A stretch of 64,000 nucleotides of DNA from an uncultured Actinomycetes bacterium (GTDB taxonomy: Bacteria > Actinomycetota > Geothermincolia > Fen-727 > JACVIW01): assembly GCA_937127245.1 (NCBI GenBank), contig CAKZLU010000048.1, positions 9,028-73,027 of the forward strand. Direction: 5' to 3'. Of the stretch, positions 757-13,080 are shown one piece after another (position 1 is the stretch's first letter; every line of letters begins with the position of its first letter). The notes beneath the pieces were generated by a model. The model did not search any database. It was not told the origin of the DNA and worked only from the letters and a program-made list of their open reading frames with translations. A program made the position numbers and the translations under genes.

Positions 757-1656
757 TCACACGGGGAAATTTTTCAGATTGAGGCAGCAGTGGTCCTTCA
801 TGTTTCGAGCTCTACCCAGTATCTCGAGAGCTATATTCTTGACCTGAAGGGGGTCGCCGAATTGTCTGTGCTCGTTGGTCACGACGGCTGAAGCTATCCT
901 CACGGTTTTTCCCTGTTTTCTTCTCTGTTGGGTAGCTATTTCAGGACATAGCTTGCCGAGGACGGTGTCAAACCTGCTCGTTACCTCTTGAAAAATCTGA
1001 CTGACTCGCACCGGCACGGTCAAAACAACGAAATCATCCTCACCGATGTACCCCGCAAATTCCTCACTCTCTATTGTGACATCGCAGAGGATCTCAGCGA
1101 GCGCCCTAATTAATTCGTTGCCTACCTCTATTCCGTATTTTTCGTTGACTACGCGCAGATTTGATATATCAAAATACATGAAGGCAAAGAACCTGCTTCT
1201 CTTTTGTATTCGTCTCCGCGTCTCGTCGTAAACTTGCGCTTTCCCCGGGATTCTTGTCAGGGGGTCAACAGGCATGCTGCTTTCTAATCTCGAGAGGAGA
1301 TTTTTTATCCGCGCGAAAAGTTCGTTCGAGTCGATTGGCTTTTGGATGTAATCGTCGGCGCCGATCTCGAATCCTTTGAGGATGTGATCGGTTTTTCCGA
1401 GCCCGGTAATTACTATGACGGGAATGAATTTGGTCGGCGAAGCGCTTTTAAACTGTCTGAGGATTTCCCACCCATCCATGTCTGGTAGCATTATATCGAG
1501 GAGTATTATGTCCGGCTCGTTGACAAGCGCTGAGGCAAGACCGGTCTCACCGTCAGGAGCTACGATGACTTCGTAACCCTCAAGCTCGAGACTGACCTTG
1601 ATTGTTTCAGCGATCGAATATTCGTCTTCGATCAGAAGGACTTTATTCCTTTGCAT
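757..1656 (-). CDS. Response regulator with C-terminal degenerate GGDEF domain
   Basis: REC domain (LLIEDE, LLDIMLP, ADDYIQKP), then DPLT and YIGEDDF in place of GG(D/E)EF. Confidence 0.85.
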   Translation of the reverse strand: MQRNKVLLIEDEYSIAETIKVSLELEGYEVIVAPDGETGLASALVNEPDIILLDIMLPDMDGWEILRQFKSASPTKFIPVIVITGLGKTDHILKGFEIGADDYIQKPIDSNELFARIKNLLSRLESSMPVDPLTRIPGKAQVYDETRRRIQKRSRFFAFMYFDISNLRVVNEKYGIEVGNELIRALAEILCDVTIESEEFAGYIGEDDFVVLTVPVRVSQIFQEVTSRFDTVLGKLCPEIATQQRRKQGKTVRIASAVVTNEHRQFGDPLQVKNIALEILGRARNMKDHCCLNLKNFPV

Positions 1657-3838: not shown

Positions 3839-4519
3839 TCAACTCACCCCCTCGCCTGCGTAGGGAAGCGATGGCGCTCCTGTGAAAGATGCCACAAGAT
3901 CAGGTCTCAGTTGTAGGACGATTGCCACAACGACCGTGGTTATCAGGGCTTCTCCGATGCCGATAATGCTGTGAACACCGACCATAGCAGGGAAGACGAC
4001 CTTAAACGGTACCGTGCCGGAGAAGGCGAGCTCAATGGAGCAAGCCGCAGAGGCTACCACGACGGAAAACCAGGCAAAGAACGCTGACGAAAAAAGAAGC
4101 GACCTTCTTTCCCCGAATCGGCTTAGCGCTTTCTTCGCAAGTATTAAGAGGTAATAGGACAGAAAACCGCCTATTATCCCCATGTTGAAGATGTTCGCGC
4201 CGAGGGCGGTCAGGCCACCGTCGGCGAAAAACAGGCACTGAACAAGGAGCACCACTGACATCACGAGGAATCCCGAGAAGGGTCCGAGAAGGACCATCGC
4301 GAGAACCGCCCCGAGGAAATGACCGCTCGTCCCCCCCGCCACAGGGAAATTAAGCATTTGAGCGGCGAAGATAAACGCCGCCGTAATGCCGAGAATGGGA
4401 ATTTTTTTCTCGTCGAGCTCTTCCCTCGCTTTGTAAAGAGCATAGCCCAAAGTACCCGTGGATGCTACGTAGGTGACTATGGAATTCTTTGGATCAAGAA
4501 AACCATCGGGTATATGCAT
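3839..4519 (-). CDS. cbiM: ECF-type Co/Ni transporter S component (CbiM/NikM)
   Basis: Diagnostic MHIPDG N-terminus at ATG 4519 with GGAGG RBS (4528-4532); FAAQMLNFPVAGGTSGH; ADGGLTALGAN. Confidence 0.92.
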   Translation of the reverse strand: MHIPDGFLDPKNSIVTYVASTGTLGYALYKAREELDEKKIPILGITAAFIFAAQMLNFPVAGGTSGHFLGAVLAMVLLGPFSGFLVMSVVLLVQCLFFADGGLTALGANIFNMGIIGGFLSYYLLILAKKALSRFGERRSLLFSSAFFAWFSVVVASAACSIELAFSGTVPFKVVFPAMVGVHSIIGIGEALITTVVVAIVLQLRPDLVASFTGAPSLPYAGEGVS

Positions 4520-4537
4520 TATTCTCGCCTCCTTCAA

Positions 4538-4597
4538 AATAAAAAACAAAAAACCACGAATGTCCGGTTTCATTCCGGATTCAGACCATCGTGGTCA
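4538..4597 (-). terminator. Intrinsic-terminator-like hairpin in the cbiM/nikM leader (candidate attenuator)
   Basis: Minus strand ACCACGA (4595-4589) ... TCCGG-AATGAAA-CCGGA ... TCGTGGT (4559-4553) followed by TTTTTTGTTTTTTATTTT, ending a few nt before the RBS. Confidence 0.65.
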
Positions 4598-4660
4598 AGT
4601 ATGCTTCCCTTATTCTACTTTTTAACTCGTTTGTCTTTTCGACTCATCGGGTCTTCTTGA

Positions 4661-4697
4661 CCCAGTAATTTTTACCATACGTAATCTGGGATGGCAA
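4661..4697 (-). promoter_or_regulatory. Candidate promoter for the cbiM/nikM leader with overlapping inverted repeat
   Basis: Minus strand TTGCCA (4697-4692), 17 bp, TAAAAA (4674-4669) preceded by TGG; CCCAG-N20-CTGGG inverted repeat at 4661-4690. Confidence 0.35.
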
Positions 4698-4842
4698 GCG
4701 TTCGCGTCAAGACTAATGCAGGTGCGTATACCGCGCTTTTCTTGAAGTGTGAATAGAAGCTAACTCTGGTTGGACGATTGCTTCACACAAACCAAAAACA
4801 GCCCCCCGGAAGAAAGAGAGTTAAGCGCTTTTTTGGGCCAAA

Positions 4843-5034
4843 TTAGTCTTGTTTACGCAGGAATATCTCGTGACCTACTAAATCCACTCGCTCTATTTTC
4901 GCGGTGATGAGCCTTTGCTCGCCGAAAAGGTCAGTGAGGAGTATTTTTTCGCCTTCAGGGTGGAGAGTCACCACGTTCTCCATGATGACTTCTTTCTCAC
5001 CGTCTTTGACTACGAAAACTATTGCCTCACACAT
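4843..5034 (-). CDS. cooT: CooT family nickel-binding protein
   Basis: 63 aa with MCEA N-terminus, IMENV, LTDLFGEQ and VDLVGHEI, typical of CooT. Confidence 0.85.
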   Translation of the reverse strand: MCEAIVFVVKDGEKEVIMENVVTLHPEGEKILLTDLFGEQRLITAKIERVDLVGHEIFLRKQD

Positions 5035-5470
5035 CTTGCGATTCCTCCCCTTCGACCGGTAGCCCGTAATGTTCCCTGACCATGTTGATCGCCTCTCTTA
5101 TAAGCTGCTGCAGGGGTTTTTTAACGGTTCCAAGGATATCAATTGGCGGGTTTGATAAAGGAAGAAGAATCTTCCTTGCCCGAGAGGAAGCGATGGCTGT
5201 CGCGATTGATGGGGTTACCTCGCCCATCATTGAGTTGGGAACCACAATTGACAGTGAGCCCATCACAATTTCCGCTTCGTTGATTGAAACCGCTATTGCG
5301 TTCTCGCCCGTTGCTCCGCGCGTGGCTTTAGCCTTCATCATATTTCCCGTGGCTATCGCGTTCGTTCCCAGCGCAATTATCTCGGCTTCCTCGGGAAGTG
5401 ATTGCCGCAGCAGTAGAACGATCTGAGTGCCAATGCTTCCGCCCATGCCGTCAACTACAGCGATGATCAA
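5027..5470 (-). CDS. DUF3842 family protein
   Basis: IAVVDGMGGSIG, ALGTNAIAT, GATGENAI, SMMGEVTP motifs. Likely TTG start at 5470 after GGAGG, overlapping the trxB stop. Confidence 0.85.
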   Translation of the reverse strand: MIIAVVDGMGGSIGTQIVLLLRQSLPEEAEIIALGTNAIATGNMMKAKATRGATGENAIAVSINEAEIVMGSLSIVVPNSMMGEVTPSIATAIASSRARKILLPLSNPPIDILGTVKKPLQQLIREAINMVREHYGLPVEGEESQDV

Positions 5471-6414
5471 TTGCTGCCTCCTTCGTACGGTTTTCGGGCA
5501 CCGGTCGACTCGAGGTAACCCTGAGCATTCATGGCTGCCTGCGCGCCTTCCGCAGCGGCGCATATGACCTGTTTTCGGCTGCCCGACCTTACGTCCCCCG
5601 CGGCGAAAACACCAGGTGCTGTCGTTTCGAGTCTGTCATTGGTCTTGACATAACCGTTTTCGTCAAGATCCACTTCCGCGGGCAGAAAACCTGTATTGGG
5701 CACGTTTCCCACGTAAAGAAAGACTCCGGAGACCGGTAATTCTTGCTTCTCGCCGGTAAGATTGTTGAGGATGACGGCGGAGCTCAGGGTTTTCTCTCCT
5801 CTCAATTCCACAAGCTCGCTGTTGAAGAGAAACTCTATCTTCGGGTTTGCCCGAGCCCGCTCTTCCAGGTACTCGGATGCGCGCAGTTCCGACCTTCTGT
5901 GAACCACTGTTACCTTGCTTGCGAATGAGGCGAGGTGGAGGCTTTCCTCAATCGCGGCATCGCCTCCTCCAACCACAATTATTTCGCGGTCGCGGAAGAA
6001 AGGGGCGTCACAGGTGGCGCAGTAAGATACCCCGCGACCGGTAAACTCAGTTTCTCCCGGAATTCCGAGCTTTTTGGGAGATCGTCCAGCGGTTATTATT
6101 GCAGACCTTGCCTCAAATGATTTTGCACCCGAAACCGCTATTTTTTTATCACCTTCAATGAGGAGCTGTTCAACACCCTGAAAACTGAGTATCTCAAGAC
6201 CGAATTTCTCCGCCTGCTCTTTCATCCTCTCCATTAAAGTGGCGCCTTCTATACCGTCCGGGAATCCTGGATAGTTTTCGATCAAAGGTGAGAGCATAGC
6301 CTGTCCGCCAACAGTCTGCTGCTCTAACAGCATGGCTTTAATTCTAGCGCGGCAAAGATAAATGCCCGCAGTGAGTCCCGCGGGTCCACCGCCAATTATC
6401 AGAACGTCCGTCAA
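5467..6414 (-). CDS. trxB: Thioredoxin-disulfide reductase
   Basis: IIGGGPAGLTA, IENYPGF, GVSYCATCD, VVGGGDAA, GVFAAGDV. Start probably TTG 6414 (the ORF extends to 6459). Confidence 0.93.
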   Translation of the reverse strand: MTDVLIIGGGPAGLTAGIYLCRARIKAMLLEQQTVGGQAMLSPLIENYPGFPDGIEGATLMERMKEQAEKFGLEILSFQGVEQLLIEGDKKIAVSGAKSFEARSAIITAGRSPKKLGIPGETEFTGRGVSYCATCDAPFFRDREIIVVGGGDAAIEESLHLASFASKVTVVHRRSELRASEYLEERARANPKIEFLFNSELVELRGEKTLSSAVILNNLTGEKQELPVSGVFLYVGNVPNTGFLPAEVDLDENGYVKTNDRLETTAPGVFAAGDVRSGSRKQVICAAAEGAQAAMNAQGYLESTGARKPYEGGSN

Positions 6415-6817
6415 AGAAAGACCCCCTTTTCGATTAAGACCCGGAACGCTTTGAATCATTTTAACATCTATGCCGTGATGGGGCGCGCGGGAACGTATGC
6501 CTTTTGCGCGCGGGAGAAAAGGGCTTGTATGTACCGGCAGAATGTTTGCGTCAAAACGTCTGGCACGTCTTGAGCGGGTTGAGCCGCTTCAAAGACATGA
6601 GTAACAGCCGGCGTGCCCGATGAACGGTCGGTCCATACCTTAGCCATCGAGTTGATTTTTTGGAGGTTTTGGTGGTTTCAAAATTTTTTCCTTACGACCC
6701 TTTTAAATCTGCGTAAGACGCCTTCGAAAGATAGTCTTATTCTTGAGATTTTGAACGCGAACCTGGCCGGGTGCGCTGTTTTATAATTTTTATGGTTCTT
6801 ATGGTGGGAATAACAAT

Positions 6818-12813: not shown

Positions 12814-13080
12814 CTATTCTTCCTCCGAAACACTCATTTCGTGGATTTCGGATAGCCTCTCTAAAGCCGCCTCGCAATTGACAAAAGCGGTTTTGAGGGC
12901 GGAGGCGACATCCTCCAGTCTTACGGACACGACTGGCATCCCCCTGTTTTTGGTGATGTTCGCCCAGTGTTCGGCTGCTCTGGCTTCGTTCTTGATCCGT
13001 TCGGACATGCTTCTTAGTGCTGTCTTGTAAGGCACGAAATCAGGTTTGCCCATGTGCACTGCACACACCTCCGGTACCAT
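12814..13080 (-). CDS. Hypothetical small helical protein
   Basis: GGAGG RBS just upstream of in-frame GTG/ATG starts near 13059/13053; helical composition; no family recognised. Confidence 0.45.
   Translation of the reverse strand: MVPEVCAVHMGKPDFVPYKTALRSMSERIKNEARAAEHWANITKNRGMPVVSVRLEDVASALKTAFVNCEAALERLSEIHEMSVSEEE

Follow-up and report, generated by a model that had tools for sequence, protein, structure and literature searches.

A conserved leader RNA predicted to control nickel-acquisition genes in anaerobic bacteria that lack NikR

Background

Nickel is essential for CODH/ACS, hydrogenase and urease. We know of no mechanism that controls nickel uptake in anaerobes lacking NikR. One comparison at the level of physiology is NikR repression of nik operons, which shares target genes, and presumably the physiological signal, with the system described here. 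In contrast, NikR is a DNA-binding ribbon-helix-helix repressor, whereas the present system acts on RNA, after initiation of transcription.

Two classes of leader RNA also bear comparison. Cobalamin riboswitches (RF00174) located before cbiMNQO operons are, like the leader described here, terminator-bearing structures upstream of a CbiM-family importer. However, the cbiM genes that they precede encode cobalt importers, whereas the operon studied here adjoins a gene for CooT and belongs to a nickel-type regulon. The NiCo (czcD) riboswitch (RF02683) is likewise a cis-acting leader RNA tied to nickel and cobalt homeostasis, but it is a four-way junction that binds metal and turns exporters ON, whereas the present element comprises one to three mini-hairpins located before importers.

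CooT has been described only as a nickel-binding accessory protein of CODH, with a function that was called unclear (PMC6006190). The CooT dimer binds one Ni, with a Kd of 9 nM, via Cys2 (PMC6006190).

The element was found in a stretch of 64,000 nucleotides from an uncultured Actinomycetes bacterium (the window). Comparative sequence analysis suggests that it represents a previously undescribed attenuator family that governs nickel acquisition in anaerobic bacteria without NikR.

Results and discussion

The leader and its gene neighbourhood

The leader lies between cooT and an importer operon with the gene order nikM-PDGLE-cbiQ-cbiO (Table 1). The operon extends down to position 1847, and its second, third and fourth genes match Pfam PDGLE, CbiQ and ABC_tran. 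About 190 nucleotides downstream of cbiO, on the same strand, is a gene for a response-regulator/GGDEF diguanylate cyclase (757-1656, minus strand), which is not at the equivalent position in the relatives inspected. On the upstream side, the start of the DUF3842 gene immediately follows the stop of the thioredoxin-reductase-like flavoprotein gene (5467-5470). A metagenomic protein, P0069, contains Pyr_redox_2 and DUF3842 domains fused in a single chain, which hints at a functional tie of DUF3842 to redox chemistry.

Table 1. Features of the leader and of the adjacent genes, in order of transcription (positions in the window)
Feature	Position	Strand	Basis
trxB-like flavoprotein gene	5470-6459	-	
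DUF3842 gene, 147-aa form, begins right after the trxB-like stop	5027..5470	-	Pfam DUF3842 E = 3e-48; 147-aa homologues
cooT (type 1), 63-aa CooT-family nickel-binding protein, directly upstream of the leader	4843..5034	-	Pfam CooT E = 5e-23; PDB 6FAN CooT E = 2e-11
325-nt gap between cooT and cbiM/nikM, contains the leader		-	
Sigma-70-type promoter: TTGCCA (4697-4692), 17/18-nt spacer, TAAAAAT (4674-4668)	4668..4697	-	Promoter scan
H1: 5-bp hairpin GGGUC-AAGAA-GACCC, 5' end of leader, A-N-G-N-A pentaloop	4649..4663	-	Fold and compensatory changes
Variable linker	4597..4648	-	Without conservation in alignment of 27 leaders
Mini-ORF MSRKDKRVKK (10 codons) in linker, this genome only	4647-4615	-	Sequence
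GUC-GAAAA-GAC hairpin in linker, this genome only	4643-4633	-	Sequence
H2, antiterminator hairpin: GACC-ACGAU-GGUC, family consensus RGCC-ACGAA-GGCY	4584..4596	-	Fold and covariation
Intrinsic terminator: ACCACGA (4595-4589) pairs with UCGUGGU (4559-4553)	4536..4595	-	MFE structure
H3: variable hairpin CCGG-AAUGAAA-CCGG inside terminator stem	4564..4578	-	Leader fold
U tract UUUUUGUUUUUUAUUUU, 17 nt, U-rich, 3' of terminator stem	4552-4536	-	Sequence
Shine-Dalgarno GGAGG	4532-4528	-	Sequence
cbiM/nikM, ATG 4519, N-terminus MHIPDGF (range includes Shine-Dalgarno)	3839..4532	-	Pfam CbiM E = 2.7e-63

A preliminary description of this leader had proposed a minus-strand promoter, and the promoter scan finds it; the transcript probably starts a few nucleotides before H1. 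The first of the two small hairpins in that description, GGGTC-AAGAA-GACCC, corresponds to H1, whose pairs covary among relatives and which takes no part in the terminator in the leader fold. The second, GUC-GAAAA-GAC, exists as described, as does the 10-codon ORF, which has no Shine-Dalgarno sequence. However, neither is conserved, and both are therefore outside the element.

The proposed terminator, with its U tract a few nucleotides before the cbiM ribosome binding site, is also present. Only 4 nucleotides separate the U tract from the GGAGG sequence, a space too small for a promoter after the terminator, and expression therefore requires read-through. The alternative fold of the left terminator arm that had been noted (GACCA-CGA-TGGTC) is H2. 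The 5' arm and loop of H2 double as the 5' arm of the terminator, so the two structures are mutually exclusive.

Folding indicates that the leader is more stable than shuffled sequence (z = -2.7). A transcript truncated before the 3' arm of the terminator is predicted to fold into H1, H2 and H3. In the full leader, the terminator is the minimum-free-energy (MFE) fold, with a local energy of -18.6 kcal/mol versus -4.1 for H2 alone.

Comparison with known RNA families

Searches with Rfam 15 returned no matches to any family, either for the window leader, even at E <= 10, or for five other copies at E <= 0.1. These negative results include the covariance model of the NiCo riboswitch (RF02683) for the window leader and the five other copies, at the same thresholds, and that of the cobalamin riboswitch (RF00174) for the window leader. 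The same Rfam tool, run at the gathering threshold as a positive control, detected RF00174 at two cbiM loci elsewhere in the phylum, which indicates that such scans detect known leaders at loci of this kind. Full-text literature searches on DUF3842, on CooT together with RNA, and on nickel riboswitches or nikM turned up no account of either the element or DUF3842. These results agree with the original suggestion that the leader is undescribed and distinct from cobalamin and NiCo riboswitches.

A family of covarying hairpins

When the leader was used in a DNA similarity search, matches in relatives were confined to the same genus. The family was recovered instead by collecting cbiM orthologues, and leaders from 30 relatives were compared. 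These share a common plan, which consists of a -10 box, H1, an unconserved spacer, H2 (RGCC-ACGAA/ACGGA-GGCY), a variable H3, the sequence (C)GUGG(C), and a run of Us. The box resembles TATAAA or TATAAT and is located 8-14 nucleotides upstream of H1. In an alignment of 27 orthologous leaders, H1, H2, H3 and the alternative terminator are all backed by compensatory changes. Cells pair in about 90% of cases, and shuffles never reach the observed covariation. Terminator pairing is 87.5% across relatives, again with compensatory changes. Conservation among cbiM/nikM orthologues, which the preliminary description had proposed to check, is thus strong and accompanied by covariation.

A covariance model built from the 27 leaders (R1) yielded 62 copies in the collected loci, from Actinomycetota, Chloroflexota and Bacillota. 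In the 62-copy alignment, which was fitted to R1 and with which an independent MAFFT alignment agrees, 92.7% of cells pair, the covariation score is 0.545 versus 0.217 for shuffles, and G-U pairs are frequent. All five pairs of H1 exhibit compensatory or double changes, with 95-98% pairing. The inner two C-G pairs of H2 are invariant (60/60 and 59/60), and its outer pairs covary. All four pairs of H3 covary, and this hairpin is missing from some copies (e.g., L082, L090 and L194). The element is a conserved family, not a chance fold.

The loops are also constrained. Among the 62 copies, the H2 loop is ACGAA in 39, ACGGA in 13 and AUGAA in 3, such that 52 have one of the first two; the ACGAU loop of the window is a singleton. 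H1, which is usually at the 5' end of the transcript, resembles H2 and follows the same A-N-G-N-A rule (AAGAA, ACGAA or AAGUA). In both hairpins, the strand-specific letters A1, G3 and A5 are conserved on a Y-R closing pair. The number of hairpins per copy ranges from one to three, with H2 alone in some (G311), and the linker between H1 and H2 is 10-57 nucleotides long across the 62 copies.

In the family, pairing of the CCACG(A) of H2 with (U)CGUGG immediately 5' of the U tract makes H2 and the terminator mutually exclusive. At one locus (L042), the terminator uses the 3' half of H2 rather than the 5' half, which implies that the hairpin is the conserved element and the terminator is an exchangeable read-out.

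Because H1 directly follows the -10 box, in the classical position of an operator, the repeats might instead function as DNA: a dimeric repressor would bind these inverted repeats over the transcription start, and the RNA folds would be incidental. However, the stems vary freely yet retain pairing, often through G-U (e.g., 17 U-G combinations at one H1 pair), which would be mismatches in DNA. Moreover, the loop is strand-specific and lacks symmetry, every H2 comes with a complementary 3' arm and a U tract, and copies also occur between genes within operons. The G-U pairs and the strand asymmetry rule out DNA operators, and we give this explanation next to no weight.

Several variants of the arrangement were observed. 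In one family of the same class as the source organism (loci L043, L046, L047, L050 and L051), cbiM is preceded by a tandem pair of complete units with their own terminators. In members of the same order (loci L024-L039), the sequence GCCACC follows the U tract about 60 nucleotides before the cbiM start, and the Shine-Dalgarno sequence is GGAGGUGG. The four elements GGCCAC (H2), GGUGGC (terminator 3' arm), GCCACC and GGAGGUGG form a chain that, judging from these sequences, would couple the choice between H2 and terminator to sequestration of the ribosome binding site, and thus combine transcriptional and translational control. The window leader does not have the GCCACC extension. In two GC-rich genomes (G097 and G111, loci L187 and L196), cooT is followed by hairpins of the form GGGCC-UCGAA/GCGAA-GGCCC and then by cbiM, without a U tract. 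These may be a translational or Rho-dependent form of the switch.

Distribution, regulon and relation to NikR

Of 401 Actinomycetota genomes sampled, R1 matches 50, with a lowest E-value of 1e-19. One match, in G201, is a Lys/Ala-rich coding repeat and was removed as a false positive, which leaves 49 genomes. A weak match in G239 proved to be the ftsZ terminator, and exact-core matches inside genes are coding sequence. R1 also matches cbiM leaders in one Anaerolineae MAG and two Bacillota MAGs.

Genes downstream of the element encode nikMNQO-type importers, ZnuA-type and FecCD/Peripla_BP_2 ABC importers, CobN with ChlI/ChlD-type chelatase subunits, a CooC-like P-loop protein, a class I SAM methyltransferase, His-rich proteins and large secreted proteins. 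These genes are a metal-acquisition regulon of the nickel type. Tandem copies occur, and the maximum is five copies per genome, a number reached in one small genome. A second copy in the source genome (G000), outside the window, is located at C29:151338-151421 (locus L082), where it heads an operon for a SAM methyltransferase, a CooC-like P-loop protein and a FecCD-type ABC importer. Its H1 is degenerate, its H2 is UAGCC-ACGAA-GGCUA, and its terminator is a perfect CCACGAAGG/CCUUCGUGG hairpin.

Locus L083 (G322 contig C134, 20 kb) contains four to five motif copies within 20 kb. These head a ChlI/ChlD-like pair with CobN, a Trep_Strep membrane protein with an ABC ATPase, and giant secreted proteins. 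In this genome of 1.4 Mb, the locus resembles an island in which a nickel-type regulon is densely packed.

NikR_C was found in none of the 24 motif genomes tested, which include the source genome, and a tblastn search of the source genome for NikR was also negative. Conversely, none of 15 cbiM loci with an adjacent NikR gene, from many phyla, carries the motif. The motif system and NikR therefore appear to be alternatives across genomes. Of the nickel or cobalt link that was originally suggested, the link to nickel is supported both by the set of downstream genes and by this mutual exclusion with NikR.

These distributions bear on the possibility that the leader responds to no dedicated signal. 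A partial terminator might simply fix a low level of expression, possibly under global regulation, or the 10-codon ORF might direct leader-peptide attenuation; the leader does contain a strong terminator, and a mini-ORF is present at 4647-4615. However, a passive terminator cannot account for the conservation of H1 loop letters across phyla, and both the restriction to nickel-related operons and the mutual exclusion with NikR argue for a specific signal. The mini-ORF, besides having no Shine-Dalgarno sequence, is absent or different in relatives; a leader peptide is ruled out because the ORF is unconserved. We regard attenuators of these kinds as improbable. In a relative of the same genus (L023), the equivalent spacer between H1 and H2 holds a 9-codon, Cys/His-rich ORF (MCESNHHCQ, versus MSRKDKRVKK in the window), which is probably due to chance.

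Proposed mechanism

The element works on the known terminator/antiterminator principle. H2 would be transcribed first and form before the terminator, and the 3' arm of the terminator would then displace it by default, with the result that transcription stops before nikM (OFF). Termination is expected to be the default because H2 is far weaker than the terminator. Read-through (ON) would need H2 to be held closed by something. Because loop letters are conserved also on H1, which is outside the terminator, the sensor of the signal presumably reads the hairpin loops, and binding would correspond to the ON state. The varying number and spacing of the near-identical hairpins are less suggestive of a ligand pocket than of an array of sites, probably bound by a multimeric protein. 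An importer should be ON during nickel shortage, which fits a trans-acting factor that is active in its metal-free form, and not the binding of Ni2+ to the RNA. We consider it somewhat better than an even chance (roughly 0.55) that a trans-acting factor opens the attenuator at low nickel. The system would thus stand in for NikR.

Alternately, the hairpins might be a riboswitch that binds Ni2+, Co2+ or a small metabolite without any protein and thereby sets the choice between H2 and terminator. As in many riboswitches, there is a conserved covarying structure with an expression platform and tandem copies, and the element is associated with metal-uptake genes. Also, the candidate proteins discussed below look unsuited to RNA binding. 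However, the recognizable element is the antiterminator hairpin, so a ligand would turn the importers ON, the opposite of what nickel should do. The conserved core amounts to no more than a hairpin of 4-5 bp with a pentaloop, and copies with H2 only, or with two or three hairpins separated by 10-57 nucleotides of unconserved spacer, are unlike a fixed pocket. In addition, the conserved letters sit in plain duplex in the terminator form. We therefore view direct ligand binding as unlikely, although less so than the passive attenuators considered above. The preliminary description had left the choice between attenuator and riboswitch open; the attenuator stands, but the riboswitch is unsupported, since the architecture and the ON logic favour a trans-acting factor.

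The DUF3842-CooT pair as a candidate factor

If a trans-acting factor opens the attenuator, it might be encoded near the motif. Among the motif genomes, CooT is present in 49 of 49 and DUF3842 in 48 of 49, versus 83 and 65, respectively, of the 401 genomes overall. Fisher p values for this co-occurrence are very small, but the genomes are phylogenetically non-independent. Outside the window's class, the overlap between motif and pair is 19/19, and DUF3842 is present in all three motif genomes from other phyla. In one of the latter, the DUF3842-CooT pair is part of the nik operon, with another CCACGAAGG hairpin after it. DUF3842 is always directly upstream of one cooT copy, and is strictly paired with the type-1 form of cooT.

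The converse comparison involves 17 genomes (besides G038) that have CooT but not DUF3842, and R1 finds the motif in none of them. Eleven of the 17 have cbiM, with a credible motif copy at 0 of 13 cbiM loci. Wherever a regulator was visible at these loci, it was NikR or a cobalamin riboswitch located upstream.

The position of the genes is also conserved. In at least 12 lineages outside the window's order, 20-200 nucleotides separate the end of cooT from the motif downstream of it, and the order DUF3842-cooT-[motif]-nikM, considered as layout only, occurs here and in at least 12 other lineages. In several genomes scored negative by the strict search, divergent motif copies are found 3' of cooT. 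A counter-case is one family of the same class whose DUF3842-CooT pair adjoins no motif copy.

The known chaperone role of CooT could explain much of the co-occurrence, because CODH is present in all 24 motif genomes tested. For the same reason, the occurrence of CooT without CODH in motif genomes fails as a sign of a non-chaperone role.

The proteins themselves give no obvious indication of RNA binding. A DLFGEQK motif is the main difference between type-1 CooT, which is acidic (median pI 4.9), and the second CooT paralogue. Residue counts give DUF3842 a net acidic character as well. Its predicted model (pLDDT 75) has a generic Rossmann-like fold with a glycine-rich loop, and the best Foldseek matches are UbiX, FtsZ and NAD-binding domains, with a TM of about 0.5. 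A PDB sequence search with DUF3842 was empty. Judged by fold and charge, neither CooT nor DUF3842 exhibits an RNA-binding signature or fold.

The pair of DUF3842 and type-1 CooT, with putative RNA-binding activity, is nevertheless the leading candidate for the trans-acting factor, if a tentative one. Apo CooT could permit antitermination and nickel-loaded CooT could abolish it, with CooT acting either itself or by controlling DUF3842. Perhaps, then, type-1 CooT and its obligate partner DUF3842 form a nickel-sensing RNA-binding antiterminator, in which the apo form holds the ACGAA-loop hairpins closed and Ni(II) at the Cys2 dimer interface abolishes this activity. We advance this specific model as possible, with clearly less confidence than the involvement of some trans-acting factor.

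In other families, the motif is often followed by the gene for a further small protein. This helical protein of about 80 amino acids begins with MC(x)xG(I/V)N, has no Pfam match, and is encoded after cooT or the motif and before cbiM (loci L084, L098, L099, L101, L184, L186, L188, L191 and L194). Its Cys2 recalls the nickel site of CooT. The MC..G.N form is absent from the source genome, and the protein therefore cannot be a universal factor. A homologue without the Cys is encoded in the window at 12838-13059 (minus strand), and its product is 39% identical to the version encoded after the second cooT paralogue in a relative.

Significance

The element is a new cis-regulatory RNA family with members in at least three phyla. 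Among the genes of the nickel regulon that it defines are those for poorly understood CobN/ChlID chelatases, ABC importers and a methyltransferase. A new mechanism of metal homeostasis would follow whether the RNA itself or a nickel-responsive RNA-binding protein is the sensor, and in the latter case the protein would be a metalloregulator of a new kind. If the proposed role of CooT and DUF3842 is correct, the pair would be the first metalloregulator known to act via protein-RNA antitermination, and a function would be available for DUF3842 and for CooT homologues of unclear role. The element could also yield a compact nickel-responsive genetic switch.

Comparison with protein-dependent attenuators

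The RNA layout most similar to that of the element is found in the dual-hairpin antiterminators targeted by ANTAR proteins such as EutV, NasR and AmiR. Both have a pair of small hairpins whose loops contain conserved residues, separated by a variable linker, and in both the downstream hairpin overlaps an intrinsic terminator. In those systems, the binding of a dimeric factor leads to read-through. The shared layout raises the possibility that an ANTAR-domain regulator of the EutV/NasR/AmiR/PdtaR kind binds both hairpins here, and the source genome does contain one ANTAR gene. However, ANTAR domains (PF03861) are present in 259 of the 401 genomes of the phylum yet at least 18 of the 49 motif genomes do not have them, and this lack of co-occurrence largely refutes an ANTAR factor. 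The loops also differ. According to Ramesh et al. 2012, ANTAR target RNAs reportedly have hexanucleotide loops with a conserved A at position 1 and G at position 4, whereas the element has A-N-G-N-A pentaloops (A1, G3 and A5) and some copies consist of a single hairpin. Finally, the regulon relates to nickel, not nitrogen. An ANTAR regulator is thus a very improbable explanation.

The proposed trans-acting factor also recalls the HutP/hut and PyrR/pyr systems of Bacillus. As in those systems, the gene for the candidate regulator is located upstream, and the binding site and terminator lie between it and the regulated genes. Also, a small ligand-binding protein would putatively set the choice between terminator and antiterminator. 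In contrast, the proteins are unrelated, since CooT is a beta-barrel and DUF3842 is Rossmann-like, and RNA binding by either is hypothetical. Moreover, the factor would bind hairpin loops in the element, in place of the UAG repeats or PyrR binding loop of those systems, and the signal would be a metal.
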